Origin: an uncultured Eubacteriales bacterium
GTDB lineage: Bacteria; Bacillota; Clostridia; Oscillospirales; CAG-272
Length of the DNA stretch: 64,000 bases
Assembly: GCA_934796165.1 (NCBI GenBank)
Contig: CAKVOU010000001.1
Coordinates: 78,752-142,751 of the forward strand
Direction of reading: 5' to 3'
The notes below the pieces were generated by a model. It did no database searches, had not been told where the DNA came from, and saw only the letters and a list, made by a program, of their open reading frames with translations. Of the stretch, positions 908 through 61,105 are shown one piece after another; positions within the stretch are counted from its first letter, which is position 1; each line of letters begins with the position of its first letter. Made by a program: the position numbers and the translations under genes.

Positions 908-2947
908 ATGGCGAAGAAACTGATCGTTGCGCAGCACGCCGGGTTCTGCTTCGGTGTCAGGCGTGCAACCGAATGTCTCGGCGCGAAGCTCTCCGACCGG
1001 GTGCCGGGGGAACGTCTGTATACCCTCGGTCACCTCATTCACAATGAACTTTATAACGCGGAGCTGGAACAAAAGGGCGTGCGGAGCGTCGTACCTGATG
1101 AGATTCCCGCGCTTGCCCGCAGTGCGACCGACGCGTCGCCGGTAACGCTCTTCATCCGCGCACACGGGATTCCCAAAGAGACCGAAGCGCTCCTTGCCCG
1201 CCTTGCCGCGGAATACCCCGCGTTTCACTACGAGGACTGTACCTGTCCGTATGTGAAAAAGATTCAGAACATTGCCGAAAAATACGACGACGGAGAACAT
1301 CTGCTCCTTCTGTTCGGCGCGGCGGAGCATCCGGAGGTCGTCGGGATTCTCAGTCATTTTTCGGGAGAAGCGTATGTGTTTCCGGATGCGGAGACCTTCC
1401 GCCGGGCGCTTTCTGACGGCTTGATTGTAAATTTGCACAAAAAATCACCAATTGCAGCGGCGCAAACGACCTTTCATTTGTCGGAATGGCAAAATTGTCA
1501 GGAAATTCTCAAAAAAGTCTGTACAAGCGCAGTTATTTTTGATACAATATGTAAGGTTACGGATGAGCGGCAGTCCGAGGCGAAACGCCTTGCGACGGCG
1601 TGTGACTCAATGATCGTGATCGGCGGCAGGGAAAGCTCCAACACAGCCAAACTGTATGCCGTCTGCCGCGAGCATTGCGCACATACCGTGTGGGTCGTTT
1701 CTGCGGAAGAACTTGCCGGAATCCATCCGTTGCTCCCCGGAGTCACCGGGATCGTTGCCGGAGCCTCAACCCCCGGCAGCATAATTGAGGAGGTAGTCAA
1801 AACCATGAGCGAAGCAGAAAACTTCGAAGCAATGCTGGAAAAATCAATCAAAACTTTAAATACAGGAGATACAGTTACCGGACTCGTAACACGCGTTACC
1901 GATCAAGAGTTGCAGCTTGACCTCGGCACCAAGGTTACCGGCGTGATCAAGGCTGAGCAGATCACCGATGACCCGTCCGCTAAGCTGACTTCCATGTTTA
2001 AGGTCGGCGATGAGGTCGAGGCATTCGTCATCCGTGTCAGTGACGTCGAGGGCGTCGCAGAGCTTTCCAAGAAGCGCGTTGATGCAGACAAGAACATCAA
2101 GACGCTGGTGGAAGCAGAAGAGAACAAGGAAGTCGTTGAAGGCAAGGTCACTGAGGTGGTCAAGGGCGGCGTTGTCGCCACTGTCAACTCCAACCGCGTG
2201 TTTATTCCCGCGGCTCTGACCGGTGTCCCGAAGGACGGCGACCTGAACACGCTTGTCGGCACGACCGTCAAGCTCCGGATCATTGAGGTCAAGGGCAAGA
2301 ACATCAAGGGCTCTATCCGTTCTGTTCTCCGCGAGGAGAAGAAGGCGCAGGAGGCAGCGTTCTGGGCAAACATCGAAGTCGGTAAGAAGTATACCGGTAA
2401 GGTCAGAAGCATGACCGATTACGGTGCATTTGTTGATCTCGGCGGTGTGGACGGCATGATTCACAGGACCGAACTGTCCTGGAAACACATCAAGTCTCCC
2501 GCGGACGTGCTGAAGATCGGCGAAGAGGTCACCGTGTTCGTCAAGAGCTTTGACCCCGAGAAGAAGAGAATTTCTCTCGGCTACAAGACCGAAGAATCCG
2601 AACCCTGGTACGTCTTCACCCATACCTATCAGGTGGGCGACGTTGCCGCTGTCAAGATCGTCAATATGATGCCTTTCGGCGCATTTGCTGAGATCGTTGA
2701 TGGCGTGGACGGACTGATTCACATTTCTCAGATCGCGCAGACCCGGATCGGCAAGCCGTCCGACGTTCTGGAGATCGGTCAGATCGTTGATGCTAAGATC
2801 ATCGACATCGACAACGAGAAGAAGAAGGTCAGCCTTTCCATCCGTGCGCTTCTCGACGAGGCGCAGGCAGCAGAGGAAGCCGCTCCCGCAGAGGACGTTC
2901 CCGCTGAGGAAACTGCCGAGGAAGCTCCCGCTTCTGACGAGCAGTAA
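908..2947 (+). CDS. ispH: bifunctional 4-hydroxy-3-methylbut-2-enyl diphosphate reductase / S1 RNA-binding repeat protein
   Basis: 679 aa. The N-terminal ~280 aa are LytB/IspH-like (AQHAGFCFGVRRA...IVIGGRESSNT). The C-terminal half carries four S1-type repeats (e.g. GKVRSMTDYGAFVDLGGVDGMIH, VKIVNMMPFGAFAEIVDGVDGLIHISQ). Confidence 0.9.
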   Translation: MAKKLIVAQHAGFCFGVRRATECLGAKLSDRVPGERLYTLGHLIHNELYNAELEQKGVRSVVPDEIPALARSATDASPVTLFIRAHGIPKETEALLARLAAEYPAFHYEDCTCPYVKKIQNIAEKYDDGEHLLLLFGAAEHPEVVGILSHFSGEAYVFPDAETFRRALSDGLIVNLHKKSPIAAAQTTFHLSEWQNCQEILKKVCTSAVIFDTICKVTDERQSEAKRLATACDSMIVIGGRESSNTAKLYAVCREHCAHTVWVVSAEELAGIHPLLPGVTGIVAGASTPGSIIEEVVKTMSEAENFEAMLEKSIKTLNTGDTVTGLVTRVTDQELQLDLGTKVTGVIKAEQITDDPSAKLTSMFKVGDEVEAFVIRVSDVEGVAELSKKRVDADKNIKTLVEAEENKEVVEGKVTEVVKGGVVATVNSNRVFIPAALTGVPKDGDLNTLVGTTVKLRIIEVKGKNIKGSIRSVLREEKKAQEAAFWANIEVGKKYTGKVRSMTDYGAFVDLGGVDGMIHRTELSWKHIKSPADVLKIGEEVTVFVKSFDPEKKRISLGYKTEESEPWYVFTHTYQVGDVAAVKIVNMMPFGAFAEIVDGVDGLIHISQIAQTRIGKPSDVLEIGQIVDAKIIDIDNEKKKVSLSIRALLDEAQAAEEAAPAEDVPAEETAEEAPASDEQ

Positions 2948-3706: not shown

Positions 3707-4183
3707 ATGGCGGAAAAGAAACAGGACGGCAAGATCATCGCGGAAAACCGCAAGGCATGGCACGATTATTTTGTGGACGAACGCTTTGAAGCCGGGATCG
3801 CACTTTTCGGAACCGAGGTCAAGAGTCTTCGCAAGGGGGCGGTCAATCTCAAGGACTCCTACTGCGAGATCCGGAACGGCGAAATTTTCGCGGTCGGCGT
3901 GCATATCAGCCCGTTCGAGCAGGGAAACATCTTCAATAAGAACCCTCTGCGCGACCGGAAGCTGCTCATGCACCGGCGGGAAATCATGAAGCTGAACGGT
4001 CAGGTATCCCAGAAGGGGCTGACGCTGGTTCCGCTCAAGCTGTACTTTTCCGGTTCGCGCGTCAAAATGGAGATCGGACTTTGCCGCGGCAAAAAGCTGT
4101 ATGACAAGCGGGATGCCGCCGCGGAGCGCGATGCAAACCGTTCGATCGACCGTCATATGAAGGACAGCCGTTACGAGGACTGA
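3707..4183 (+). CDS. smpB: SsrA-binding protein
   Basis: 158 aa, [32 protein letters not shown]..., full-length SmpB-like. Immediately upstream of tmRNA. Confidence 0.95.
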
Positions 4184-4197
4184 CACAATTCAGATAA

Positions 4198-4570
4198 GGG
4201 GACGTAAAGGTTTCGACGGGGATTCTGAGGCATGATAAGCGTGGCAGGCCGGGCAATCCTGTAAAAGGCCCAACTTTTAAACAATAAACGACAACAATAC
4301 TGTTGCAATGGCTGCCTGAGAGGGCAGTGCCGTAGGACTGCGGTCCTACCCGGTCAGCCGATGAGTATCGCGGCTTCGGATTGACCGTCAATGAGCGATG
4401 CACGTGCACCGGCGGTTCGCACTTGAACCGGTCATGCAGAAAAGCGCTACCGAAGAGGTGAGCCTGTCATCCGGCGCTCCTCCGAGGGAAATCTAAAAGA
4501 ATGACTGCCCACGAAGAAAGTTGTGTCAAGGGATTTTCGGACAGGGGTTCGACTCCCCTCGTCTCCACCA
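4198..4570 (+). ncRNA. ssrA: transfer-messenger RNA (tmRNA)
   Basis: 5' GGGGACGTAAAGGTTTCGACGGGG and 3' GGACAGGGGTTCGACTCCCCTCGTCTCCACCA (tRNA-Ala-like acceptor/T-arm with CCA). Internal tag frame reads ...N-D-N-N-T-V-A-M-A-A-stop (TGA 4317-4319). Lies 14 nt after smpB. Confidence 0.9.
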
Positions 4571-4571
4571 A

Positions 4572-4612
4572 GCACAAACAGCCCGGCTTTATGCCGGGCT
4601 GTTTGTGCTTCT
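4572..4612 (+). terminator. tmRNA terminator hairpin
   Basis: Perfect 16-bp stem GCACAAACAGCCCGGC / GCCGGGCTGTTTGTGC with loop TTTAT, followed by TTCTT. Confidence 0.7.
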
Positions 4613-4857
4613 TGGATAGATGGAGGGAGTCGAACGGGTCGGAAGTGAATGACAGCCCGGTGGGCGGTCAAAGCCGACCCTGCGGGGGCCCGCAGGCGAG
4701 AACGACTCCCTGAACGGATTTACCCGGCTTTATGCCGGGCTGTTTGTGCTTTTTGGATAGATGGAGGGAGTCGAACGGGTCGGAAGTGAATGACAGCCCG
4801 GTGGGCGGTCAGAGCCGACCCTGACCGAGCCCGCAGGCGAGAACGATTCCCCGAACC
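4582..4857. repeat. tandem direct duplication (2 x ~141 bp) of the ssrA-distal flank
   Basis: Copy 1 is 4582-4722 and copy 2 is 4723-~4857. Both start inside the terminator hairpin (CCCGGCTTTATGCCGGGCTGTTTGTGCTT) and continue through GGATAGATGGAGGGAGTCGAACGGGTCGGAAGTGAATGACAGCCCGGTGGGCGGTCA(A/G)AGCCGACCCTG. Only a few substitutions separate the copies. Confidence 0.9.
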
Positions 4858-4984
4858 GCAAGTTATGTTTTTACGAGCAATCTGAGTAAAAATGTGCGTA
4901 ACTTTTTAAATAACAATCCCATGTGGAATCTATAGAATATGTAACTAGGAATTTAACTATTTAATAATATTTTGATTGAAAAGG

Positions 4985-5013
4985 TTGACAACCAATTCCA
5001 ACAGTGATATAAT
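4985..5013 (+). promoter_or_regulatory. consensus sigma-A promoter of the islet
   Basis: TTGACA (4985-4990), exactly 17-nt spacer, TATAAT (5008-5013). Confidence 0.65.
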
Positions 5014-5095
5014 ACATTTGATCGTTTCTCCTACGTTTTTTGGGGTTACCACTTACCTTATAGGAAGTTAAGGTCCCTTGTAGGAGGTTCCTACC

Positions 5096-5503
5096 ATGAA
5101 GAGTTGGAACAAGAGAAACGGTCAAAGAGCTACCACAAAGCGTCCTGGAACGAAAGAGTATCACGATGACTTTGTCAATCGGGGCAACCAGTTCTTCCAA
5201 AAGAAGACCAAAGCTGGCTGTACGAATTGCGGATCATCGAATGTTCGTGCTACGGGAGGAGATGGACGTCTGTTTGTCTTCTGTGCTAACTGTGGTAAGC
5301 AACTGAAGGTGATAAATACCAAACCAACACCAGTTGGTAATTGGTCGAAAAAAACCATCTTCCGTTCACGAGCGGGCTTATGCCTCTTGTGCGGAGGAGG
5401 TAGCTTCACCGGACAGTTGCACAGTGACCTTTCGCAGAAGCGGTATGCGCTTTCGCTCACATGTTGCCGCTGTGGGAGATCCTGTAATTGGCACAATTTC
5501 TGA
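5096..5503 (+). CDS. hypothetical small basic protein with two CxxC...CxxC zinc-ribbon motifs
   Basis: 135 aa. AGGAGG (5082-5087) lies 8 nt before the ATG. Motifs are CTNCG-x19-CANCG and CLLCG-x23-CCRCG. Promoter upstream and hairpin+T-run downstream. No family recognised by eye. Confidence 0.6.
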   Translation: MKSWNKRNGQRATTKRPGTKEYHDDFVNRGNQFFQKKTKAGCTNCGSSNVRATGGDGRLFVFCANCGKQLKVINTKPTPVGNWSKKTIFRSRAGLCLLCGGGSFTGQLHSDLSQKRYALSLTCCRCGRSCNWHNF

Positions 5504-5515
5504 CGTGAAAGCGTC

Positions 5516-5537
5516 AGAGGGCGTGCCCTCTTTTTTA
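5516..5537 (+). terminator. short intrinsic terminator/attenuator between islet ORF1 and ORF2
   Basis: (A)GAGGG-cgtg-CCCTC(T) stem followed by TTTTTT, preceded by a second small hairpin TGACG-tgaaag-CGTCA that overlaps the stop codon. Confidence 0.5.
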
Positions 5538-5572
5538 TATAAAAAATAATAAAATTGAAGTAGGAGAAAAAT

Positions 5573-7510
5573 ATGGGATTTGAAGAATCAATTAACAACT
5601 TGAAAAATCAATTAAGTAAAACGAATTCCTTCCAAGCAAAGTCTATATTGTTGAGAGATTTTCTGTGCAACAATAAATGTTTTGAAAAAAAACACTATTA
5701 TAGCGAAGAGGAGAAAAATGACCCGGTTATTCTGGCAGTCAAGAAAAATTATGGACTTAACGACATTTGTTATGAAACTTGCTTTGCCTTAAAGACTTGT
5801 TATTTTGAGGGGGAATTGGTTAAACCGGGTAACGTAAAAACGATGTATGAACATGTTTTAACCGGCATACAAGAAGGAAAAATTCAACTGGATGTGGATG
5901 TAAAATATTTTTGCGATTTGTATTTAGAGTTGGTTGATGCACTTTTCCCTCATGGGGGCGGAGATAACATGGAGGTCTATAAAGATCAGTTTAGCGATTT
6001 TGATATTGATAAAACAAAGTTAGACTCAGAAGAGTACCCAAGTTTGCTGTGCTATAAACATTATCGGAAGGATCTTTTAATATCTCTTATTTGTTTTTTG
6101 CTAAATCAAAGGAATAAAGAATCATTCCATTTAGCTATCAATTATTTTGAATTGTACGGTAAAAAATATCAAATTAATAATGTGACATTTATCAATGCTT
6201 TTTGGGGGCCTTTTAGAAAAAAAGATATAATAGATGAAGATTTTAGAAAAAAAGATGAACTAGACATAATTGAATTTAAAAGATTTCTTCAGAAAATCGA
6301 TGAGCGGGACTTAATACTATTTTTAAAATTGTTTGAAGCCGAAAGTTTAGAAAGTGCCAGCTCAATCCGGTGGGAGCAATTTGTTAAAGAGTCTATCGAG
6401 TTTCAGAACGAGTTGAAAATCGATAAAGAGAATTCGGAAGGTTTCTTTGTGATACCAACACCAGATTTAGATGTTAAGGAAATTGAACATAACATTAATA
6501 ATTTATTGAGTGCTGATCTCAAAACGATTGAAAACGATAATTACCATGAAATGTATAAATTCTACCAAGATCTGTGGGCTTTTTATGGTATATTCTCCTG
6601 GGTTAGAATTTCAAATAAGACAAAATATTTTTTGTCTCTTTTGATAAGGGATTATCCGGAACTATACAGGAAGGAATCTTATAATACTAGTTCGGATCCT
6701 AATACATATAGTTCGAGTCTTTATAAAATGACTATTACTATGATTGACGAAAGATTGGACGACATCGACAAAAAAAGAACTGAAAAATTGTTAGAAGAAA
6801 TGAATAGTATTGAAAAGGAGGAAATAGAAAGGTACTGTAAAAGTTTTTTTGCAACAATACAAGTCGGAGATAAGATCGAAAAATTGGATGAGGCTAGTGT
6901 AAATAAATTATACACTAAGTTTTCGGGTATGAAGGGCGGCGAAGATTTAGTTAAACTCATTGCCGGTGCACAAAAATTTATTGAACCTTACGAAAAAATT
7001 GATCAAACATTAGCCGGCGATTTTACGAAACTGATTGTAACACAAGTCAAGGTGATTGAGCGTTACTTAAAATCTGTTATTATTTCCAATATGACGGGTG
7101 AAAAAATCTTGTCAAAATACAATTTCAAACAAGCATACGACTCAAACCTAAAAAGCGAATCAAAAACACCTTTTATAATTATTGGAGAAGGAATGACTTG
7201 GGAGAATTTATCGCGGCAAAATAAGGCTGGAATAACAAATAGTATTTCTATTGAATTGGCGACTGCATCCTATATCATTCAACAAAATATGGATAAGGTA
7301 AAGGACAAAAACGCGAAAGAGGAGGACTTCAAAGCGTTTTTTGATGTGCAAAAGGAGTATGATAAAAGAATTCGTAGTTTCTTATATTGGAAAGATGATG
7401 TGCGCAACGGTTATTTCCACTCTCACCCCATAAAAACGTTAGGAGAGGCTTTGGCTATTCACAGGAAGACGGCATACTGCTTGGCAAAATGTATCGAATT
7501 ATTAAAGTGA
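5573..7510 (+). CDS. hypothetical 645-aa protein with C-terminal HEPN-like RNxxxH motif
   Basis: Long uninterrupted ORF in AT-rich DNA. AGGAG lies 6 nt before the ATG. C-terminus reads ...FLYWKDDVRNGYFHSHPIKTLGEALAIHRK... (R611-x4-H616). A second looser motif is QRNKESFH (R180-x5-H186). The function call is inference. Confidence 0.75.
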   Translation: MGFEESINNLKNQLSKTNSFQAKSILLRDFLCNNKCFEKKHYYSEEEKNDPVILAVKKNYGLNDICYETCFALKTCYFEGELVKPGNVKTMYEHVLTGIQEGKIQLDVDVKYFCDLYLELVDALFPHGGGDNMEVYKDQFSDFDIDKTKLDSEEYPSLLCYKHYRKDLLISLICFLLNQRNKESFHLAINYFELYGKKYQINNVTFINAFWGPFRKKDIIDEDFRKKDELDIIEFKRFLQKIDERDLILFLKLFEAESLESASSIRWEQFVKESIEFQNELKIDKENSEGFFVIPTPDLDVKEIEHNINNLLSADLKTIENDNYHEMYKFYQDLWAFYGIFSWVRISNKTKYFLSLLIRDYPELYRKESYNTSSDPNTYSSSLYKMTITMIDERLDDIDKKRTEKLLEEMNSIEKEEIERYCKSFFATIQVGDKIEKLDEASVNKLYTKFSGMKGGEDLVKLIAGAQKFIEPYEKIDQTLAGDFTKLIVTQVKVIERYLKSVIISNMTGEKILSKYNFKQAYDSNLKSESKTPFIIIGEGMTWENLSRQNKAGITNSISIELATASYIIQQNMDKVKDKNAKEEDFKAFFDVQKEYDKRIRSFLYWKDDVRNGYFHSHPIKTLGEALAIHRKTAYCLAKCIELLK

Positions 7511-7636
7511 CTGAGTCAAAAACTCTTTAATACCAGAATGTTTCCCTAGCCAATGGCGTCAAGGTTCCCATTGAAAATGCCCGGAAGAAAGCGTTGCATA
7601 TCCCCCGCAAATCCGTCCGGAAAACCGGCTCCGCTA

Positions 7637-7665
7637 TTTACTTTACCCGCCCGGTATGGTATACT
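7637..7665 (+). promoter_or_regulatory. possible promoter upstream of GH31 gene
   Basis: TTTACT, 17 nt, TATACT, with TATGG in the -16 region (tatggTATACT). Confidence 0.35.
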
Positions 7666-7765
7666 TTGAAGAGAAGATACGTTTTTGAAACGCTACAACC
7701 GCGTCCGGAACAAAGCACGGCGCAGGCGGCTGTGCCCCGGGAAATGAGGAAAGGCTGAGAATCAT

Positions 7766-10681
7766 ATGGCAATGGATGCAGGCAGGCAAAAGAAAAACGA
7801 CAGATCAATAAAGGAGCCTTGCCGGAAAGCGGTGAATTGCCGCAAGCCGGTCTCCGGGGCGCCGTTCCGGTGCAGTTATGAGATCGGCGACGTGCGGATT
7901 CAGCTCCTTTCTGATACGCTCGTCCGCATTGAAAACCGGAAAGATTCCGGGGACTTTGAAAACCGGGAAAGTTACATTGTGACCAACCGGTTGGACTGGC
8001 AGGGAACGGATGCACGGGTGCTCCGGACGGACGGTGGAACAAAGATCGTTGCTCCCGGTTATACGGTGATGATTCCGGACGGCGGGAAAGCGGAGCAGGT
8101 GACCGTCACAGATAAAAACGGGAAGCTCCTGTATTCGTGGGCGGGAACAACCGGCATGAACATTTATCTTCCAAGCCCCTCCGATGAGCTTGGCAGTTGG
8201 TACTTCACCGACTCGCCGCGGATCATTCCGTCCTGCGCGGGGTACAGTGACGAGGGACTGACAAATCTGCAGAATTGGGATTTCGGGAGCCGCGCGACCG
8301 ACATTTTTGTCTTTTTGCCGGGCGGCAGTTACGGGCGGTTCTTGGAGGATTTTGTGCGGCTGACGGGTAGGTCAGAGATGGTGGAGCTTCGCACGCTCGG
8401 TTTCTGGGATTCCCGTTACTATGCATACAGCGAAGAGACCGCCCTCCGTCAGATCCGGGACTACCGCGATCGGGGTTACGCCATTGATATGCTCGTAATC
8501 GACACCGACTGGAGGGAAAACAAGGGAACCCGCGGGATCGGCTACGACGTCAACACGGAACTGTTCCCGGACATGAAGCGCTTCCTCCGGGAATGTCATG
8601 AGGCGGGCGTCGGGGTCTGCTTCAACGATCACCCGGAGCCGGTCGCCGGTACGAAGAACGGCTTGGACGGCGCGGAGGTCCGTTACCGCAATGAGAAGCT
8701 CAAGGGACTGCTCTCAATCGGTCTGGATGTCTGGTGGTATGACCGGAACTGGGAAACCTCGCTGTTGTCCGCGGATCCCGGGATCTCCGTTTACGCGTTC
8801 GGAATGTACGCGTTTCACCGGATTACGGAGGATTATTACAGAAGGCTCGCCGGAGAGCAGGAGTATGCGCGCCGCGCAGTCATCATGGGAAACGTGGATG
8901 GCGTGATGCACGGGGAATGGAAGTACGCGTCGGATCTCTCCGCACACCGGTATCCGGTGCAATGGACAGGCGATATCTGCGGGGAAAGCGCGGATCTTGC
9001 CCAAGAAATCTGCACGGCAGTATTCGGTGGGGCGGAGGTCGGGATCCCGTATGTTTCCTCCGATCTCGGCGGACATCTGGGGACACCGACGGAGGCGCAA
9101 TACATCCGTTGGATTCAGTACGGAATGCTGACCCCGTTTTGCCGCGTACACTGTTGGGCACGGGACGGTTCCGGGCGGATGCCGTGGCTGTTCGGGGACC
9201 GGGCAGAAGCCGTGTTCAGGGCGTATCAGGGGATACGCTATCGCCTGTTGCCGCTGTTTTACCTGCTCGTGCGGGAAAACTATGACCGCGGACTGCCGCT
9301 GATGCGCCGGCTGGACATCCGGTATCCGCAGTACCCGGAGGCGTCGCGCAACGACGAATACCTGCTGGGAGACGGGATTCTTGTCGCTCCGCCGGCACAG
9401 TCGGAACCGGAGAATGACGGCGGGCAATGCAGGCGGGAGGTATTTTTCCCGGACGGCACGTGGATCGACGTCTTTTCCGGTAAGCGATACACGGGACCGT
9501 GCAGCGTTACGGTAAGTCACCCGCTTGACACGTCCCCGCTGTATGTGAGGGAAGGCTCCCTTGTTATACTGGCGCAGAACGGGATCAATACCGGGGACTC
9601 CGATTGGAGTCGGCTTTCGCTTGACGTTTACCCGTCCGCAAAGGATTCGGCGGTTACCCGGCTGTATGAGGATGATACCAAAACCGTCGCTTACCGGGAC
9701 GGACAATTCCGTACCACGGAGCTTTCCATGCATTGCGACAGAGAAAAGCGGACGGTAACCGTGCGTATCGACGCGGCAAACGGTACTTTTGAGGGAAAGC
9801 GGGCGTCTGATGTCCGTGAATGGAATATCCGTGTGCACAAGAATCCCGGATGGGGGAATCTCCGTCTTGTGACCGTCAACGGAGAGCGGATCCCCGCCGG
9901 CAACATCAGAAGGAGTGCCACAGATTCCTCGGTGGTTCCCTTTGCGTTTTGCGGTGCCGCGGCAGACGGCGATGTCTGGGAGTTCCCGGTAAGCGGGCGT
10001 GTGGATACGGAATACGAAATCGGGCTGTCCTTTGAAGCGGTTGCGGCTCCCGTGGAGAGTTGTGCGTATGACCGCCAGCCGATCGGATTTACCCTGACGA
10101 AAAACGGAGAGGTACAGTCGGTCGATCTTTCGCATGACGGCACGCTCGGCTGGGTTTCCTTCGGCGACGGCGGAACCGTTTCGGCGACGGGAGATACACA
10201 ACTGTTCTCTTACCCCCGTACCCGTGTCTGCGGAAGCGGCAGGGCAAAGGAGCAAAGCGTCGTTTCACTCAGTCCGATGGTCGGTTCGGTGCAGAAGATT
10301 CATTGTACTGCCGATGGGCAGTACAGCGGCAACGATGCGGTATACACGAATCCGTTCTTTGATCTGGAGATCAGAACCGTCGGAAGGCACGCACGGTATG
10401 TGCTGATCCTCGGCGGGGTGTTTTCCACGGCAAAGGTGACGGTCCGCGACCGCGGAGGAAATGTGAGAACGGTCTCTTTCGGCAGTCTTGCTGGCGAGTG
10501 GTCGCAAAAGGTTACGATTGAAGTGCCCGGGACGGAAGTGGGAACGCTGTACGTCCATATCGCCGTGGTCTGTGCGGGAAGAAGCGAAAGTCCGGAGTAT
10601 CCTGCCGCGACGCGCCTGAAGCATCCCGCCGCACTCAAGCTGTACGGTTGCTGCGCGGAGGACGCGGAACGGACTCTTTGA
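7766..10681 (+). CDS. glycoside hydrolase family 31 protein (alpha-glucosidase/alpha-xylosidase-like)
   Basis: 971 aa. GH31-type blocks: IDMLVIDTDWRENKG, GLDVWWYDRNWE, HRYPVQWTGDI, GIPYVSSDLGGH, YIRWIQYGMLTPFCRVH. Long C-terminal beta-rich extension. The exact start is uncertain. Confidence 0.85.
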   Translation: MAMDAGRQKKNDRSIKEPCRKAVNCRKPVSGAPFRCSYEIGDVRIQLLSDTLVRIENRKDSGDFENRESYIVTNRLDWQGTDARVLRTDGGTKIVAPGYTVMIPDGGKAEQVTVTDKNGKLLYSWAGTTGMNIYLPSPSDELGSWYFTDSPRIIPSCAGYSDEGLTNLQNWDFGSRATDIFVFLPGGSYGRFLEDFVRLTGRSEMVELRTLGFWDSRYYAYSEETALRQIRDYRDRGYAIDMLVIDTDWRENKGTRGIGYDVNTELFPDMKRFLRECHEAGVGVCFNDHPEPVAGTKNGLDGAEVRYRNEKLKGLLSIGLDVWWYDRNWETSLLSADPGISVYAFGMYAFHRITEDYYRRLAGEQEYARRAVIMGNVDGVMHGEWKYASDLSAHRYPVQWTGDICGESADLAQEICTAVFGGAEVGIPYVSSDLGGHLGTPTEAQYIRWIQYGMLTPFCRVHCWARDGSGRMPWLFGDRAEAVFRAYQGIRYRLLPLFYLLVRENYDRGLPLMRRLDIRYPQYPEASRNDEYLLGDGILVAPPAQSEPENDGGQCRREVFFPDGTWIDVFSGKRYTGPCSVTVSHPLDTSPLYVREGSLVILAQNGINTGDSDWSRLSLDVYPSAKDSAVTRLYEDDTKTVAYRDGQFRTTELSMHCDREKRTVTVRIDAANGTFEGKRASDVREWNIRVHKNPGWGNLRLVTVNGERIPAGNIRRSATDSSVVPFAFCGAAADGDVWEFPVSGRVDTEYEIGLSFEAVAAPVESCAYDRQPIGFTLTKNGEVQSVDLSHDGTLGWVSFGDGGTVSATGDTQLFSYPRTRVCGSGRAKEQSVVSLSPMVGSVQKIHCTADGQYSGNDAVYTNPFFDLEIRTVGRHARYVLILGGVFSTAKVTVRDRGGNVRTVSFGSLAGEWSQKVTIEVPGTEVGTLYVHIAVVCAGRSESPEYPAATRLKHPAALKLYGCCAEDAERTL

Positions 10682-10868: not shown

Positions 10869-12455
10869 ATGGATTCACAGGACCAAAAGAACCGGGGAAC
10901 AGCTTTTTCGGAAGGATCCGCTCCGGGAACCACAACGCCGCCCGCAAGACGGGGAATGCACCCGGCGCTTCGGGTACTGACCTATGTACTGGTGTTTCTG
11001 CTTGGCGCAGGAACGGCAGTCAGTGCGATCGTCGGGGCGGTATTTTACGGATACGACCACGTTCCCGTCAATTCGGTGCTGGAAGTGGTCTACCCGGATT
11101 ACCGGGAGATTCTGAATGAAGAATTTGCGGAGAAGACCGTAGCGGGAATGCTCCGGGAGCTCGGCTCCGGCAATATTCACACGCTCGCCGACCTCCGGGG
11201 CATTACGCCGTGCGTCGATTCTCTCCTTGACAGATTGGAGGAAGCACTGGCGGAGTTCGGCATCGTTCCGGATAGGGAGGAGCTTTGCAGGGTACGCTGG
11301 GAAGACCTCGGGACCTATGTATCGGAGAATCTTGTCCGCTCTGCACATCTTGACCGTTTGCTTTCGGTGAACGCCTCCTCCTCCGATCTGGAAAAGTATC
11401 TGGTGTACGGCGTGGAGGGCGAGGACTATACCGTTCTCAACGGGGAAATCGTCATGAAGGAAGGCAAGTCGGTGCATACGCTCGGAACCCTGCTTGACCC
11501 GGATGAAAGAAAAGCACTGCTTGACGGAATGCGTCTTTGCGACGCAATGGAGATCACGGAGGACAGCGAGCTGATACTCCGCAGCCTCAGAGATACCAAG
11601 GTCAGTGAGCTTTCCGAAAAGGTGGACACGCTTCTTCTTTGCGAAGTGGTCGAGATCGGGGAGGAGAGCAGTCAGGCTCTTCTCTCGCTGAAGGATACGC
11701 CGGTCAGTGAGATCGGTGACCGTCTGGATACTCTGACGCTCGGCGAAGCGGTGAAAATCACGGAGGACAGCGAACGACTTCTGCAACGGCTGAAGGATAC
11801 CGAGATCCGGAATCTGACGGCAGAGGTCAGGGAACTGACGGTGACCGACGTGGTGGAGATCCGGGAAGACAGTGCGCATGTCGTCCTGACCCTGAAGGAT
11901 ACCAAGCTTTCCGCCCTGAACACAAGGCTGGAAGCACTGACGCTTTCAGAAGTAGTGAAGCTGGATGAAAGCAGTCCGCTGATTCTCCGGACGCTTGCCG
12001 GAAGCCGGCTGGAAAACATCGATGAGGATGTCAATGCGTTGACGATGGAACAGGTGCTCGGGGAAGAGACGTTCGGGCACAATGTGGTGCTGGATGCGAT
12101 CCGTTCGTCCCGCCTTGACACCGTGGCGGATGACATTGAGACGCTGACGGTCAACGAGCTGTTCCGGGATGAGATTTATGGCGCGGACGGAGACGTCAAG
12201 GGCGCATGGAGATATATTCTGATGGAAGACGGTGTGGAGCAGATCACCTACCTCAAGGATATTGACCGGCTTTCGGGGCGGATCTCCGCAAATGTCAACC
12301 GCGCGACCCTCAGGGAGCTTCAGACCGACGGCATGATCGCCGTGACGAATCCGGCGGATCTGGAGAAGACGGTCCTTGTGGACGGTCAGCGGGTTAAGCT
12401 CGGGGATATGACCGTGTCGCATTTGGTGGACTATATTCTTCGTTATGTTCATTGA
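10869..12455 (+). CDS. membrane-anchored protein with tandem 34-aa repeats
   Basis: 528 aa. GGAGG RBS. N-terminal TM helix (VLTYVLVFLLGAGTAVSAIVGAVFYGY) followed by periodic E/D/L-rich repeats. No family recognised. Confidence 0.8.
   Translation: MDSQDQKNRGTAFSEGSAPGTTTPPARRGMHPALRVLTYVLVFLLGAGTAVSAIVGAVFYGYDHVPVNSVLEVVYPDYREILNEEFAEKTVAGMLRELGSGNIHTLADLRGITPCVDSLLDRLEEALAEFGIVPDREELCRVRWEDLGTYVSENLVRSAHLDRLLSVNASSSDLEKYLVYGVEGEDYTVLNGEIVMKEGKSVHTLGTLLDPDERKALLDGMRLCDAMEITEDSELILRSLRDTKVSELSEKVDTLLLCEVVEIGEESSQALLSLKDTPVSEIGDRLDTLTLGEAVKITEDSERLLQRLKDTEIRNLTAEVRELTVTDVVEIREDSAHVVLTLKDTKLSALNTRLEALTLSEVVKLDESSPLILRTLAGSRLENIDEDVNALTMEQVLGEETFGHNVVLDAIRSSRLDTVADDIETLTVNELFRDEIYGADGDVKGAWRYILMEDGVEQITYLKDIDRLSGRISANVNRATLRELQTDGMIAVTNPADLEKTVLVDGQRVKLGDMTVSHLVDYILRYVH
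11550..12059 (+). repeat. five in-frame 102-nt (34-aa) coding repeats
   Basis: EITEDSELILRSLRDTKVSELSEKVDTLLLCEVV / EIGEESSQALLSLKDTPVSEIGDRLDTLTLGEAV / KITEDSERLLQRLKDTEIRNLTAEVRELTVTDVV / EIREDSAHVVLTLKDTKLSALNTRLEALTLSEVV / KLDESSPLILRTLAGSRLENIDEDVNALTMEQVL. A degenerate sixth unit follows. Confidence 0.8.
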
Positions 12456-54713: not shown

Positions 54714-55000
54714 AGGTTACCTCGTCACTCGGGAAAGCCGGTATTTTTCAACGGTGTCCGTCAGGTACCGTCGGCGTTTCAATCATATTATTATATCACA
54801 ACCAAAGATAAAAGAAAAGACCTTCCCGGAAAAACGCGAGAAAAAGTGGCACCGCAAGGCATCCAGTTTCGGGAAAATTCCCCGCGCGCTGGTCGCAGTG
54901 ACAGATGCCCGTCGGAAAAAACGTGAGAAGAGGAATACGGTACCTCTTTGGTTTTGGAAAAGAATCCGGCGCGCCGACCGGGTTCCGTCGAAAATCGCAC

Positions 55001-55036
55001 AAAAAAGGGACTGCCTTGCGGCAGTCCCGGATTTTT
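55001..55036 (-). terminator. terminator after pheT
   Basis: GGGACTGCC-ttgc-GGCAGTCCC with an A-run/T-run on both sides. The T-run follows the hairpin on the minus strand. Confidence 0.7.
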
Positions 55037-55057
55037 GGAGAAAAGATTCAACCTGCG

Positions 55058-57457
55058 TCAGCCGCGCAGACCGATCCCCATCTTGAATTGCAGATCCTTG
55101 ACGATCTTGGCGGAAACCTTGTCCGCTTCCTCCACGGTGAGAGTACGGTCGGCGGCGCGGAGCGTGACGCGCAGGGAGACCGACTTCTTGCCGTCGCCGA
55201 GCTGCGGTCCGCGGTAGATGTCAAATACTTCGATGCTCTCCACCAGTTTGCCCGCCGCCTTACGCATGACGGCTTCCACGTGACCGACCTCCACGTCCTC
55301 ATCGCAGACGAAGGAGTAATCGCGGGTGGTTGCGGGGAACTTGGGAAGCGGCTTGAAATCGCGGGTCAGATCGGCGTTTGCCCAAAGCGCTTCAAAGTCG
55401 ATGACGGCGAGGTATACGGGTTCGTCTATGCCGTAATTCTGTGCGGTGAGGGGGTGTACCTGCCCGACGGTTCCGAGTTGCGTGCCGTCTGTCGACAGAA
55501 TCTTTGCGCATCTGCCGGGATGGTAGATCGGGTCATCGGTCACTGCTTCATAGGACGCGTCGCGGATGCCCGCAAGCGAAAGAACATTGTCGCAGATGCC
55601 CTTCATCCGGTAGAAATCGGTGTCTCCGTATGCGCCGACGGTCAGGGTCTTGCGCTCCTCGGGGAGCTTATCGGGATCGGTGTCGGGCAGATAGACGTTT
55701 CCGATCTCAAAGAGGCGGACGTTCTTGTTGGAATAGTTGTAGTTGTGCATGAGGATTTCCAGCATGGAGGGGACGGTCGTCGTCCGCATGACGCTGGTGT
55801 CCTCGCCGAGCGGGTTGGAGATGACGACCGAACGGCGGAGCGGACTGTCGGGTGCCAGCCGGATTTTGTCGTAGTATTTCGGGCTGACGAAGGAGAAGGT
55901 CTGGATCTGGTCCACACCCATGCCGTACATTGCGCGCTCCAGTGCCACTTCAAACGCCTGCTTGGGCGTCCGTCTGCCCGTCACGGTCTCCGCGCGGATG
56001 CAGGTGGAGGGGAGGCTGTTGTAGCCGTGGATCCGTCCGATTTCCTCTGCAATGTCCTGCATACAGTTGAGGTCGCCGCGGAAGGAGGGAACACAGATCT
56101 TGCCGTCCGCAACGCGGCATTCCAGCTTTTCAAGAATGGATTTCATCTCGGATTCTTCAAGAGAGGTTCCGAGGAAGCGGTTGTAGCGGTCAGGTTCAAA
56201 GGGCAGGATCACCTGCGGCTTCTTGGTCGGGTATTCGTCCACAAGTCCGTCCACCACATCGCCCGCGCCGAGCAGCTGAACCAGTTCGCAGGCGCGCATG
56301 AGTCCGCCGTAGCAGTTTTCGGGATCCAGTTCCTTTTCAAAGCGCGCGGAGGATTCGGTGCGCATTCCGTTCTTTTTGCCCGTCACGCGCACGGAAGTAC
56401 CCTTGAAGCAGGCGGATTCAAAGACGACCGTCGTGGTTTCGTCCGTGATCTCGCTGTTTGCACCGCCCATCACACCCGCCAGCGCACACGCCTTCTTTTC
56501 GTCGGCGATGACGAGCATGGAGGAGTCCAGCACGTGATCCGTTTCGTCGAGCGAACGGAACGCTTCGCCGTCAGCGGCGCGGCGGACGCGGATCGCGGAG
56601 CCTTCGAGCTGCTTGTAGTCGAACGCGTGCATCGGCTGACCGTATTCCAGCATGACATAGTTGGTGATGTCCACGATGTTGTTGATCGGGCGGACACCGG
56701 CGGCGCGCAGACGCATCCGGAGCCAGAGCGGGGAGGGGGCGATGCGGACGTTCTTGACGACCTTCGCCATATAGCGGTAGCAGAGATCGGGCGCTTCCAC
56801 CGAGACGGAAAGATACTTGGAAATGTCGTCGCCGTCGCCGAGCGGTTTGACGGTCGGTTCGGAAATATGAAGCGGGCGGTCAAAGGTCACGGCGCTCTCG
56901 CGGGCAAGACCGATGACGGAGAGGCAGTCGGGACGGTTGGAGGTGATCTCAAATTCCACCACCTTGTCGGAAAGGAGCAGTGCCTCGCGGATGTCCTTGC
57001 CGATCATGGGGGCAAAGCTCTCATCGAGAATGAGGATTCCGTTTTCCTCCTTGCCGGGCATATCGTGCGCCGTGAGTCCCAGCTCGCCGAAGGAGCAGAG
57101 CATACCGTCCGACGGAACGCCGCGGAGCTTGCCCGGTTTGATGGTCACGCCGCCGGGCAGGGTTGCCACGGGGAGCGCGGCGGGAACGATTGCGCCCTCA
57201 AATACATTTCCGGCGCCCGTGACGATCTGCACGTCGGTGCCGGTTCCCACGTCCATCTGACAGATCTGCAGATGGTCGGAATCCGGGTGCTTTTCCAGCG
57301 ATTTGATCCGCGCGACCACAACGTTTCTCACGTCGTCGCCAAGCAGAGTATAGCTCTCGACCTTGGAGCCGGAATCGGTCATGCGGTCGCAGTATTCCTT
57401 GATTTCGATGCCGTCCGTTTTTACGAAGTCGGACAGCCAATTCATGGAAAGATTCAT
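55058..57457 (-). CDS. pheT: phenylalanine--tRNA ligase beta subunit
   Basis: 799 aa, MNLSMNWLSDFV...; tRNA-binding, B3/4, B5 and FDX-ACB regions recognisable. Confidence 0.95.
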   Translation of the reverse strand: MNLSMNWLSDFVKTDGIEIKEYCDRMTDSGSKVESYTLLGDDVRNVVVARIKSLEKHPDSDHLQICQMDVGTGTDVQIVTGAGNVFEGAIVPAALPVATLPGGVTIKPGKLRGVPSDGMLCSFGELGLTAHDMPGKEENGILILDESFAPMIGKDIREALLLSDKVVEFEITSNRPDCLSVIGLARESAVTFDRPLHISEPTVKPLGDGDDISKYLSVSVEAPDLCYRYMAKVVKNVRIAPSPLWLRMRLRAAGVRPINNIVDITNYVMLEYGQPMHAFDYKQLEGSAIRVRRAADGEAFRSLDETDHVLDSSMLVIADEKKACALAGVMGGANSEITDETTTVVFESACFKGTSVRVTGKKNGMRTESSARFEKELDPENCYGGLMRACELVQLLGAGDVVDGLVDEYPTKKPQVILPFEPDRYNRFLGTSLEESEMKSILEKLECRVADGKICVPSFRGDLNCMQDIAEEIGRIHGYNSLPSTCIRAETVTGRRTPKQAFEVALERAMYGMGVDQIQTFSFVSPKYYDKIRLAPDSPLRRSVVISNPLGEDTSVMRTTTVPSMLEILMHNYNYSNKNVRLFEIGNVYLPDTDPDKLPEERKTLTVGAYGDTDFYRMKGICDNVLSLAGIRDASYEAVTDDPIYHPGRCAKILSTDGTQLGTVGQVHPLTAQNYGIDEPVYLAVIDFEALWANADLTRDFKPLPKFPATTRDYSFVCDEDVEVGHVEAVMRKAAGKLVESIEVFDIYRGPQLGDGKKSVSLRVTLRAADRTLTVEEADKVSAKIVKDLQFKMGIGLRG

Positions 57458-57472
57458 GTCTTCTTACCTCCT

Positions 57473-58486
57473 TCAGAACTGCTCAAGGAACCGGATATCG
57501 TTGTCGTAGAACATCCGGATGTCGTCGATGTGATACTTGAGCATGGCAATACGTTCAATGCCCATGCCGAACGCAAAGCCGGAGTAAACATCGGGGTCAA
57601 TGCCGCAGTTGCGGAGCACGTTGGGGTGTACCATGCCCGCGCCGAGGATTTCGATCCAGCCCTCGTTCTTGCACAGCCGGCAGCCCTTGCCGCCGCAGAC
57701 AAAGCAGGAGACATCCACCTCGGCGGACGGCTCCGTGAAGGGGAAGTGGTGCGGGCGGAAGCGGATACGGGTATCCTCGCCGAACTCGGTCTTTGCGAAG
57801 GTCTCAAGGATGCCCTTGAGGTCGCTCATGGCAATTCCCTTGTCCACGACAAGTCCCTCAAACTGATGGAAGAGCGGGGAATGGGTTGCGTCCATGGTGT
57901 CCGAGCGGTACACGCGTCCGGGGGAAATGATGCGGATCGGCGGCTTCTGCTTTTCCATAACCCGCGCCTGAACGGGCGAGGTCTGGGAGCGGAGCAGGAT
58001 CTTGTCGGTGATGTAGAAGGTGTCCTGCGTGTCGCGCGCCGGATGATCGGGCGGAATGTTGAGCGCCTGGAAGTTGTAGTAGTCGTATTCGACCTCGGGA
58101 CCTTCGGCAATGGAGAAGCCCATGCCGATGAAGATGTCTTCGAGATCGCGCTGTACCAGCGTGAGCGGGTGGATGTGCCCCATTGCGGGAGCCTTGCCCG
58201 GCATGGTGACGTCCAGCTTTTCCGAGCGAAGCTTTACCTCAAGGGCGCGTTCCTTCATCTTTTCGGCACGTTTTGCGATTGCCTCTTCGATGTTTGCCCG
58301 CACCTCGTTTGCAAGCTGCCCGATGACGGGGCGCTCTTCGGCAGAGAGGGAACCCATGCCGCGGAGTACCGCGGTAAGCTCACCCTTCTTGCCGAGATAC
58401 CTGACGCGGATCTGCTCGAGATCCGCCTTGTCGTCCGCGATCTGGGAGAGCGCGTCCGATTTCAGTTTTGCAAGAATTTCTTTCAT
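57473..58486 (-). CDS. pheS: phenylalanine--tRNA ligase alpha subunit
   Basis: 337 aa, ...[11 protein letters not shown]...[15 protein letters not shown]...[10 protein letters not shown]... Confidence 0.95.
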
Positions 58487-58543
58487 AACGGTATACAGTT
58501 TCCTTTCTTGTGAAAGTAAAAATTTTCATGTGTCAGCGGGGGG

Positions 58544-58797
58544 CAAAACAAAAAACATCCCGTCCTGTTTTTACAGGACGGGATGAAAAATTCATTCCGC
58601 GGTACCACCCGTATTTCGGCAAAAGCCAACACTTTCGCGGCAGGTAACGGTGCCATCCGTGACCCGCTACCGAACACCTTCACGGGTCATGCTCCGAAGC
58701 GAAGGGCAGTATCCGAATCTACGTGACCGCTTTCAGCCTGAGGACGGTCTCTCTGTGACGCAGACGGTCGGAACGCCGACTTCATCAATGCATTTCT
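58544..58797 (-). promoter_or_regulatory. T-box riboswitch leader (Phe specifier) with terminator
   Basis: Minus strand shows AGAGAG and GCTGAAAGC stem I elements. Specifier loop reads ...CCC-TTC-G (TTC is the complement of 58701-58703). T-box core GGGTGGTACCGCG is the complement of 58598-58610. Terminator is CATCCCGTCCTGT-aaaa-ACAGGACGGGATG plus TTTTTTGTTTT. Confidence 0.85.
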
Positions 58798-58803
58798 TTT
58801 TAC

Positions 58804-58831
58804 AGTATAACACATTCCGCGGGAAAATCAA
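58804..58831 (-). promoter_or_regulatory. possible promoter of the pheST leader
   Basis: Minus strand shows TTGATT, 16 nt, TATACT, with TGTGT in the -16 region. Confidence 0.45.
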
Positions 58832-58838
58832 GTGGTTT

Positions 58839-60326
58839 TCAAATATTTTCTGCCGGGACCATTGCTTTTTTCCTGAGCGCATCCATGACGATGTTGTGCT
58901 CGGAAAACGGCAGATACTGTCCTGCGACAAGCTGGTAGGTCTCATGTCCTTTGCCGACGAGCGCGAGGATGTCGCCCGGGCGGAGCCGCCGGATCGCTTC
59001 CCGTATCGCTTCTTCGCGGTCGGGAATACTGACATACGGACAGCTGCCCTCCGGGAATGCGACGGCGATTTCCGCAATGATATGGCTCGGCAACTCATTG
59101 TCGGGGTTGTCCGACGTCAGAATGCACAGATCTGCGCGGGGACCTGCCGCTTCTGCCAATTCGCGCCGACGGATGCGGGTCCTGCCGCCGACCGAGCCGA
59201 ACAGGCAGATGAGACGGTTCGGATGGTACGCGCGGAGCGCGTCAAGCAGGGAGGACAGGCTTACCCCGTTGTGCGCGTAGTCAATGATGACAGAAGCACC
59301 GTCCGGCGTTTCGATCAGCTCAAAGCGACCGGGAATGGAGACATTCGCAAGTACCTTTGCACACGCCGCGGGAGAAACGCCGAACAAGCCCGCCGCGGCG
59401 ACCGCGCACATCGCGTTGTACATACTGAATCTGCCGGGGAACGGAATTTTAAAATCGGTTGTGTGACCGTCCTTTTCGCGTACGGAAAACCGGATGCCCA
59501 TCCAGGAACCCTCGCGCAGAAGCGAGAAGTCCTCGCCGGAATAGTCAGCGCCGGGATCTGCGGAAACCGTGAGGAGTCTGCCGTGAAAATCTTCCGTCAT
59601 GTAAGCGGCAAACGGGTCGTCGCCGTTGACGATGACGGTCGTGGCGCCGTAATCGGAAAACAGACGTTTCTTGCAGTCTCTGTAATGATTGAAATCGGGA
59701 TGCTCACGTGGACCGATGTGGTCGGGAGACAGGTTTGTGAAGATGCAGGTGCGGAAGGTCAGACCGCGGATCCTTTGCATCAGGATTGCCTGAGAGGATA
59801 CCTCGATCGCCACGGCGCGTATGCCGGCATTGTGCATTTCCGAGAGATACCGGTAAAGCTCAGGCGCTTCGGGGGTGGTGTTGTGGGTCTCTTCTTTGCG
59901 CCCCGCGTACTGTACCCCGTTGGTGCCGATGTATCCCGCAGGGATGCCGTTGTCGTCCAGCAGGCGACGGGTCAGGATGGCAACCGAGGTTTTTCCCTTG
60001 GTGCCGGTGATGCCGATCAGATGCATATCCCGTTCGGGATGTCCGTAATAATTGCCGGAGATCAGCGCCATATCCCGGCGTACATCGTCGGAAAACAGGA
60101 TCAGCGCGTCGGGGGGCAGGGTGATGGGACGCTGTACCAGAAACAGGCGACAGCCGTGTGTGTACGCCGCAGGGGCGAAATTGTGACCGTCGGATACCGT
60201 GCCGACAAGACAAAAAAACAGAACGCCGTCCCGGGCAAGCCGGGAGTCGTGGCAAAGTCCCCGGACGTCCGGATTCTCCTCCGGCATGGCAATATCGGTT
60301 CCCAAAAGCAGGTCGGAAAGCAGCAT
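58839..60326 (-). CDS. murE: UDP-N-acetylmuramoyl-tripeptide synthetase (MurE family)
   Basis: 495 aa, GITGTKGKTS, DYAHNG, GKGHETYQ. The position of the meso-DAP-specifying DNPR motif reads DNPD. Confidence 0.88.
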   Translation of the reverse strand: MLLSDLLLGTDIAMPEENPDVRGLCHDSRLARDGVLFFCLVGTVSDGHNFAPAAYTHGCRLFLVQRPITLPPDALILFSDDVRRDMALISGNYYGHPERDMHLIGITGTKGKTSVAILTRRLLDDNGIPAGYIGTNGVQYAGRKEETHNTTPEAPELYRYLSEMHNAGIRAVAIEVSSQAILMQRIRGLTFRTCIFTNLSPDHIGPREHPDFNHYRDCKKRLFSDYGATTVIVNGDDPFAAYMTEDFHGRLLTVSADPGADYSGEDFSLLREGSWMGIRFSVREKDGHTTDFKIPFPGRFSMYNAMCAVAAAGLFGVSPAACAKVLANVSIPGRFELIETPDGASVIIDYAHNGVSLSSLLDALRAYHPNRLICLFGSVGGRTRIRRRELAEAAGPRADLCILTSDNPDNELPSHIIAEIAVAFPEGSCPYVSIPDREEAIREAIRRLRPGDILALVGKGHETYQLVAGQYLPFSEHNIVMDALRKKAMVPAENI

Positions 60327-60346
60327 GAGGTCCTCCTTTTTTCAGT

Positions 60347-61105
60347 TCATTCCGCCGGAGAAGGGACGCGCAAAAACCAGTCCGGGAATCCGACGGGAGT
60401 TTTGTGGCAGGCAAGAATGGTTTTGTGGGCAAGGATTTCCAAGGAATCCGCAAAGACCGACGGATCGGGACGAGCGGCTTTGCCGATCAGCGACAGCTCG
60501 GTACAGCCGAGCACCAGCCGGTCGCAGCCGTCTTTCCGGAGATGCCCGCAAACGCGGGAAAACGCTTCCGTGTCCGGAGCGTCGCCGCGCTTGATCTGCC
60601 CGTAGATCAGATGATTCAATGTTTTCTGATCTGCGTCGCACGGGACCGCGTAGCCGATCCCATACCGCTCCGCGACGCTCTTGTACGCGCCGGAACGGAC
60701 GGTGCCCTCGGTTGCCAGCACGCCGATTTTGCGGGTGCCGCTCTGCGCGAGCATTTTCACGGTTTCTTCAATGATATTGATGACGGGAACCGAGACCGCT
60801 TCTCTGATCTGACGATAGAAAAAATGCGCGGTGTTGCAGGGAATCGCGATGAGCGTTGCCCCGGCACGTTCCAGCCGTCTCGCCTCTTCGCACATGACGG
60901 GGGCGGGATCCTCTTCCGATTCCCCCAGAATAAACGCGGTACGGTCGGGAGTGGATGCCCGGCTCGATAAGATCAGGTCAATGTGATCGCTGTCTTTTTT
61001 TGCGGCGGTGTGCGCGGTCAGAAGCTCGTAAAAATAAACCGAAGCCATCGGACCAAGCCCCCCGAGAATGCCGAGCAGCTCGTGCTTTGATTCATGCGGC
61101 ATCAT
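60347..61105 (-). CDS. aspartate racemase family protein
   Basis: 252 aa, LGILGGLGPMAS..., with two catalytic Cys contexts IPCNTAH and LGCTELS. Confidence 0.8.
   Translation of the reverse strand: MMPHESKHELLGILGGLGPMASVYFYELLTAHTAAKKDSDHIDLILSSRASTPDRTAFILGESEEDPAPVMCEEARRLERAGATLIAIPCNTAHFFYRQIREAVSVPVINIIEETVKMLAQSGTRKIGVLATEGTVRSGAYKSVAERYGIGYAVPCDADQKTLNHLIYGQIKRGDAPDTEAFSRVCGHLRKDGCDRLVLGCTELSLIGKAARPDPSVFADSLEILAHKTILACHKTPVGFPDWFLRVPSPAE

Follow-up and report, generated by a model that had tools for sequence, protein, structure and literature searches.

A rare family of predicted HEPN ribonucleases paired with a double zinc-ribbon protein on an AT-rich island beside the tmRNA gene of an uncultured Eubacteriales bacterium

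Within a 64,000-nucleotide (nt) stretch of DNA from an uncultured Eubacteriales bacterium (GCA_934796165.1, contig CAKVOU010000001.1; hereafter the window), an open reading frame (ORF) at 5573-7510 on the plus strand encodes a 645-amino-acid (aa) protein whose last ~200 residues very likely form a catalytic domain of the HEPN superfamily. On balance, we favour reading this protein as a single-HEPN, RnlA-like homodimeric ribonuclease (RNase), the effector of a mobile defence or toxin-antitoxin-like cassette in which its partner is a small zinc-ribbon protein encoded just upstream, here called ZnR. HEPN ribonucleases do the killing or the arresting in a wide range of bacterial immunity and toxin-antitoxin systems, Cas13, Csm6, RnlA, HepS and RAZR among them. 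An initial annotation made from the letters alone had proposed a possible single-chain HEPN RNase with two HEPN-type motifs, RNGYFH (R611-H616) and RNKESFH (R180-H186). The ORF itself was confirmed, with an ATG start, an in-frame stop three codons before it and an AGGAG ribosome-binding site 8 nt 5′ of it, and both motifs lie where they had been placed. The catalytic HEPN-type domain predicted at the C-terminus stands, with invariant hallmarks and an alignment to RnlA, but the second motif and the two-HEPN reading built on it do not.

Shuffling the 645-aa protein 20,000 times gave 0.90 generic Rx4-6H motifs per sequence and two or more with P = 0.22, and two such motifs in this protein are unremarkable. 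The stricter pattern RNx3-5H occurred 0.054 times per shuffled sequence (two or more, P = 0.0013), but it was picked after the sequence had been seen, which makes conservation the proper test of the motifs. Homologs were collected with an exhaustive HMMER search of 1.84 billion cluster representatives, which found 28 family proteins, 11 of them at E ≤ 1e-10, all metagenomic, unnamed and from tiny clusters. The family is very rare in public data, at 28 clusters (50% identity) among 1.8 billion representatives. Members resemble one another mainly over the last ~200-300 residues, with identity to the query of 32-46% over aa 440-645 versus 15-23% over aa 1-439, and N-terminal divergence that outpaces that of the C-terminus is typical of defence sensors. 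D483, K493, E496, L499 and K500 are present in all 28 sequences. R611, N612 and H616 are found in each of the 27 homologs covering these positions, the one gap belonging to a truncated fragment, so the R611/H616 pair on which the initial annotation had leaned is conserved, and the helix QVKVIERYLKSVI that it had picked out proved to be the second conserved block.

Other searches added little. The 645-aa protein gave nothing usable against Pfam, PADLOC, PHROGs, NCBIfam and PDB sequences, tblastn on phage and plasmid records gave no match, and neither the HEPN-like domain nor ZnR was found in viral contigs. A word-indexed search of 5.8 billion proteins returned the query alone, both for the single sequence and for the 28-sequence alignment, probably because low-complexity K/E/N-rich words swamp the candidate list. 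The genome collection held one locus only, and the JGI metagenomes one 1.1-kb contig for ZnR. Two observations were made beside distant family members. At locus L007 an inverted 78-aa piece (1774-2007, minus strand) that corresponds to the C-terminal third of the HEPN-like domain lies just 5′ of the intact member P0004, as if left over from a second copy. At L026 a 1439-aa protein with a faint RdRP Pfam match (3962-8281, minus strand) and an unannotated 413-aa protein are both convergent to the member P0013.

A census of HEPN domains lists as hallmarks a conserved Rx4-6H, a polar residue, mostly N, D or H, directly after the conserved R, and, upstream, another conserved acidic residue, as a rule within Ex3[KR] (PMC3710099). 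All three are invariant in this family, as R611-x4-H616, N612 and E496-R-Y-L-K500. When members were compared with Pfam one by one, RnlA-toxin_DBD was matched by 6 of 25 (best E = 8.6e-4), every time with the block GDxTxLVxxQIKxVERYLKE placed on profile positions ~36-89 of 125, and the HEPN family Abi_2 (PF07751) was matched weakly by 2 of 25 (best E = 0.011). The RnlA-toxin_DBD scores of 13.6-18.1 bits lie below the gathering cut-off of 27, the Abi_2 matches are likewise below theirs, and the query itself has no RnlA-toxin_DBD match. For a closer comparison we used an alignment of eight RnlA/LsoA HEPN domains (E. coli K-12 and seven plasmid homologs), whose conserved blocks read DY....[FY]P.LR..EG.LK and RH..FH. 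Aligning the family profile with this profile in hhalign gave a local score of 23.5 (E = 0.007), compared with 8.7-14.1 for 30 column-shuffled controls (z = 8.7). The hhalign probability of 5.6% does not reach the census level, where profile-profile matches had HHpred probabilities of 75-98% (PMC3710099).

Under relaxed hhalign settings one collinear alignment spans both motifs, placing D483/K493/E496/L499/K500 on RnlA D245/R255/E258/L261/K262 and R611-NGYF-H616 on R318-HSLF-H323. RnlA needs each of R255, E258, R318 and H323 for its RNase activity and its toxicity, and D245 is part of the canonical HEPN dimer interface (PMC8266594). The equivalents of all four catalytic residues are present here as K493, E496, R611 and H616, with K in place of R255. 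An AlphaFold2 (AF2) model of the C-terminal domain, built with the family alignment, is mainly helical and confident (mean predicted local distance difference test, pLDDT, 87.3; predicted template modelling score, pTM, 0.87). The first block lies in a long helix and the RN motif at the end of the penultimate helix, with a beta-hairpin and extra helices inserted between the two. We conclude that the family is not in current databases and, since it falls below the Pfam threshold and differs from RnlA in its N-terminal architecture and its partner, that it is not the RnlA family proper.

The AT-rich island that carries the gene pair and the zinc-ribbon ORF preceding the large gene had not featured in the initial annotation. 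ZnR has 135 residues and two Cys4 zinc ribbons (C42/C45/C63/C66 and C96/C99/C123/C126, four CxxC pairs) behind a basic N-terminal segment, WNxRNGQRATVKRPGTKEY. Its homologs form 22 clusters with 51-70% identity to the window copy; all eight Cys and the basic segment are essentially invariant among them, and ZnR is thus much better conserved than the effector. Its database matches are weak and limited to Lar-like and zinc-ribbon families. RnlB was considered as a relative of ZnR and rejected, as the ZnR profile has no similarity to it. The gene caller of the public assembly missed the ZnR ORF (8611-10001 of L001, the public contig of the window) despite a strong promoter, a ribosome-binding site and the 22 homolog clusters, which is why the window ZnR is missing from the protein collection.

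ZnR lies 42-69 nt 5′ of a family member in five independent contexts (the window, L003, L004/L005, L010/L011 and L015), a small, co-oriented and adjacent partner kept as a pair in the manner of type II toxin-antitoxin systems. It is absent near four distant family members; the pairing is conserved within the window subclade but does not extend to the family as a whole. The −35 and −10 elements of the consensus promoter in front of ZnR recur 5′ of ZnR in other loci, and the partly conserved hairpin in its leader, which may be a cis-regulatory element, also stands 5′ of ZnR in L003, L004, L010, L015 and L017. Most loci (L003, L004 and L015 among them) share a hairpin with a T-run directly after the ZnR stop codon, and no separate promoter for the 645-aa gene was detected in the window. 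The strong promoter and the intergenic hairpin together suggest high expression of ZnR and lower expression of the effector. The guanine-plus-cytosine (GC) content of ZnR is 10-17 points above that of the HEPN-like gene next to it at every locus compared (window, L003, L004, L008, L010, L015), for example 0.48 versus 0.33 in the window and 0.41 versus 0.25 in L010. The HEPN-like gene matches host GC in low-GC hosts, which suggests that the family is native to low-GC Firmicutes.

From what can be read directly, namely foreign composition, gene pairing, family, motif conservation and the ORFs, we infer a fold, an RNase activity, dimerisation, a role for ZnR and a function in defence that could fit together as follows. 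The C-terminal ~200 residues of the effector would form one metal-independent HEPN endoribonuclease domain with an RnlA/LsoA-like active site, in which K493 and E496 (E496-x3-K500) share a helix and R611-N612-x3-H616 falls at the junction leading into the last helix. With a single HEPN domain per chain, the active site would be a composite formed by a homodimer, as in RnlA and other HEPN RNases, and the invariant D483 would correspond to the interface residue D245. The variable helical N-terminus and ZnR would control the nuclease. Transcribed from a consensus promoter and followed by a weak terminator before the large gene, ZnR would probably be made in excess. Its most likely role is to keep the nuclease inactive, as an antitoxin would, or to link it to a trigger that comes from the phage. 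Upon infection, or when the partner is lost, the RNase would cleave RNA of the cell or of the phage and arrest growth, as abortive-infection and toxin-antitoxin systems do.

Two other views of the partner have to be weighed. It is possible, if tentative, that ZnR and the 645-aa protein are an undescribed two-component anti-phage system in which the highly conserved ZnR is a trigger-recognising hub, resembling the zinc-ribbon sensor of RAZR but as a protein of its own and perhaps serving other effectors as well (L008, L013, L016, L017), and the large protein is a new HEPN family whose hypervariable N-terminus tunes specificity. We regard it as unlikely that the 645-aa protein works by itself as an abortive-infection HEPN nuclease encoded by one gene, both sensing and acting like HepS or AbiF/AbiD, and that ZnR is a functionally unrelated backbone or regulatory gene of the mobile element. 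Distant members do without ZnR, L016 has ZnR but no HEPN-like gene, other recurrent unannotated genes accompany ZnR in L008, L015, L016 and L017, a terminator-like hairpin parts the two genes, and ZnR has only weak Lar-like and zinc-ribbon matches; HepS shows, moreover, that one HEPN protein on its own can be sensor and effector at once (PMC13043305). However, the pair keeps its close spacing in five otherwise unrelated contexts, the window, L003 and L004 are minimal islands with nothing but the pair, and the large gene has no promoter of its own that we could detect in the window.

The HEPN assignment has its own rival, namely that the C-terminal domain is not a HEPN RNase, its RNx3H and Ex3K motifs belonging to some other hydrolase, binding a nucleotide or ligand or being needed for structure alone, and its likeness to RnlA being convergent. 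Weighing for this view, Foldseek with the confident domain model returned no HEPN neighbour, every sequence match to a HEPN family falls below its threshold, and the domain is ~55 residues longer than RnlA between the blocks, where the beta-hairpin and extra helices lie. Given the invariant hallmarks and the single alignment through both motifs, we consider this rather improbable, and a HEPN domain remains our prediction.

The N-terminal 439 or 440 residues are all-helical in the full-length AF2 model (mean pLDDT 72); this rapidly diverging region most likely senses a trigger or restrains the nuclease. Foldseek with the full-length model returned generic helical-repeat noise only. A short internal duplication, FRKKDIIDED / FRKKDELDII, is also present in this region (window 6203-6271), corresponding to a 24-nt direct repeat 30 nt apart. 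The initial annotation had pointed to R180-H186 as a second HEPN motif, to aa ~150-300 as a possible second HEPN fold and to Cas13 as the precedent for two such motifs in one chain. R180 is found in 3 of 28 sequences and H186 lies in a three-residue insertion found only in the query, while profiles of aa 1-439 and aa 140-300 scored 11.8-14.0 against the family HEPN-like and RnlA profiles, within the shuffled background; a second HEPN in aa 150-300 was rejected on these two grounds. No regularly spaced repeat family resembling a CRISPR array was found in the 64 kb and no cas domains in the window ORFs scanned, as the annotation had noted; with no Cas13 match in Foldseek either, an association with Cas13 or CRISPR was rejected. 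That R180/H186 and R611/H616 make an intramolecular, Cas13-like active site is therefore extremely unlikely, the unconserved first pair and the missing array outweighing the presence of two RN-type motifs, their rarity by chance under the stricter pattern, and the placement of R180-N181 in the full-length model, where a loop of high local pLDDT joining two helices holds them.

Among known systems, RnlA/LsoA (RNase LS; PF19034; the RnlAB and LsoAB modules) is one of the closest. Both share a C-terminal D...[R/K]xxExxLK followed by R-[H/N]-x-x-F-H, and both are two-gene modules with a small partner, on mobile DNA and in a defence-type context. Unlike RnlA, which has 357 residues, the 645-aa protein has an all-helical N-terminus that is neither TBP-like (NTD/NRD) nor RNase H-like, with no such Pfam domains, in addition to the extra residues between the blocks, the K at the position of R255 and family scores of at most 18 bits. 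The partner also differs, being upstream and a double zinc ribbon, and no RnlB-family antitoxin is adjacent. RAZR, the ring-activated zinc-finger RNase with a DUF4145 HEPN, uses its zinc ribbon as the sensor of a phage protein (PMC13017515). Both combine a Cys4 zinc ribbon with a divergent HEPN RNase, in RAZR for abortive-infection defence, and the likeness is one of analogy only, as RAZR is a single chain of ~200 residues with one ribbon fused to DUF4145, whereas here a separate two-ribbon protein accompanies a much larger effector with no DUF4145 match.

HepS is tetrameric and cleaves tRNA anticodon loops (PMC13043305). HepS and AbiD/AbiF (Abi_2) resemble the 645-aa family in joining a HEPN nuclease to a variable region proposed to sense infection, in the stand-alone state of distant family members and in the two weak Abi_2 matches. 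They differ in that no Abi_2 match reaches threshold here and the window subclade carries a conserved partner gene. Cas13 shares only an Rx4H HEPN-type motif; it has two HEPN domains where this protein has one, and neither an array, a structural match nor crRNA-binding lobes were found.

The cassette lies on an island of foreign composition that starts directly after smpB and the tmRNA gene (Table 1). The neighbourhood of tmRNA genes is a classic site for imported DNA. GC inside the island is 0.25-0.50 compared with 0.55-0.63 outside, and that of the 645-aa gene is 0.327 versus 0.574 for the rest of the window. For the strongly AT-rich surroundings of this gene the range is 0.25-0.40, set against 0.57-0.60 in the host. 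Each of the tandem 134-nt repeats between the tmRNA gene and the island holds the terminator hairpin of the tmRNA together with 18 nt that match its 3′ end in inverted orientation, and they are possibly the scar of earlier integration or excision events. An Rfam scan of the tmRNA-flanking repeat gave only a sub-threshold SorX-like match (4671-4747, 25 bits versus a cut-off of 46.6). No ORF was found 3′ of the 645-aa gene (7510-7766). The large ORFs scanned around the island encode housekeeping proteins typical of a Firmicute that forms spores (LytB-S1, GH31, SpoIVA, DnaK/DnaJ, MutS2). Three ORFs of host GC elsewhere in the window have no significant Pfam match: 10869-12455 (528 aa), 54905-58513 (1202 aa) and 58650-60605 (651 aa).

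Table 1. Features of the island and its flank in the window, and ZnR or HEPN-like genes at other loci.
Feature	Position	Strand	Basis or remark
smpB	3707..4183	+	SmpB Pfam match, 1.3e-62
tmRNA gene (ssrA), just 3′ of smpB; island landmark	4198..4570	+	ARAGORN; Rfam RF00023 at 147.8 bits
Two tandem 134-nt direct repeats, 94% identical	4582..4856 (4582-4715, 4723-4856)	+	Between tmRNA gene and island
AT-rich imported island, ~2.8 kb, two-gene cassette only	4857..7650	.	GC shift; edges approximate
Sigma-70 promoter of ZnR	4985..5013	+	TTGACA, 17-nt spacer, TATAAT, extended −10 TG; 12/12 consensus match
ZnR 5′ leader with weakly conserved hairpin	5014..5095	+	RNAalifold: 13 pairs, 8 compensatory; energy weak, −4.7 kcal/mol
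ZnR, 135 aa	5096..5503	+	Two Cys4 zinc ribbons and basic N-terminal segment; conserved partner gene
Terminator-like hairpin and T-run between ZnR and 645-aa gene	5516..5531	+	Possible attenuator
645-aa protein gene	5573..7510	+	ORF and translation; 28 family representatives (exhaustive HMMER)
N-terminal region, aa 1-439	5573..6889	+	AF2 full-length model; regional identity; Foldseek
RNKESFH (R180-H186)	6110..6130	+	Second motif of the initial annotation; unconserved, judged chance
C-terminal HEPN-like domain, aa 440-645	6890..7507	+	AF2; eight invariant residues; weak Pfam matches; hhalign against RnlA-family profile
Block 1, DFTKLIVTQVKVIERYLK	7019..7072	+	Invariant D483, K493, E496, L499, K500 (Ex3K); aligns with RnlA D245/R255/E258/L261/K262
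Block 2, RNGYFH (R611-H616)	7403..7420	+	Invariant R611, N612, H616; Rx4H motif, predicted catalytic; aligns with RnlA R318-HSLF-H323
L003			ZnR and family member, by tRNA-Met gene; frameshifted
L004/L005			ZnR and family member, after DAPDH gene
L010/L011, L015			ZnR directly 5′ of family member
L008			ZnR 2.6 kb upstream; helix-turn-helix (HTH) gene and 498-aa gene between
L007, L025, L026, L027			HEPN-like gene, ZnR not nearby (distant members)
L016			ZnR, no HEPN-like gene in the 4.2 kb available
L008, L015, L017			ZnR near other unannotated genes

The neighbourhoods of the homologs often look like defence islands. Type I restriction-modification genes and an AAA_15/21 ATPase are found in L004, a Schlafen-like ATPase in L007, helicase, PLD and methylase genes in L010 and a methylase in L027. 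The genes that recur next to ZnR in other loci had no informative Pfam or PHROG match beyond an HTH regulator and an FtsK-gamma domain. Close to ZnR or HEPN-like genes, two unannotated families of 150-190 aa and 334-357 aa turn up repeatedly (L015 332-838 and 1448-2518; L008 2945-3457; L017 179-736; L007 1268-1729; L016 1031-2035, minus strand), neither with a Pfam or PHROG match. They may make up the backbone of a mobile element that has the cassette as cargo.

Taken as a whole, this is a rare, uncatalogued family in the well-known HEPN superfamily, with a new partner and architecture. It opens no new category, being another HEPN effector within that superfamily. If our reading is correct, it would add a HEPN family that escapes today's profile libraries and defence-finder models altogether, and models of the family could join annotation tools. 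It would also add a new type of partner, a separate double zinc-ribbon protein, in a minimal mobile two-gene layout carried by gut-type Firmicutes.

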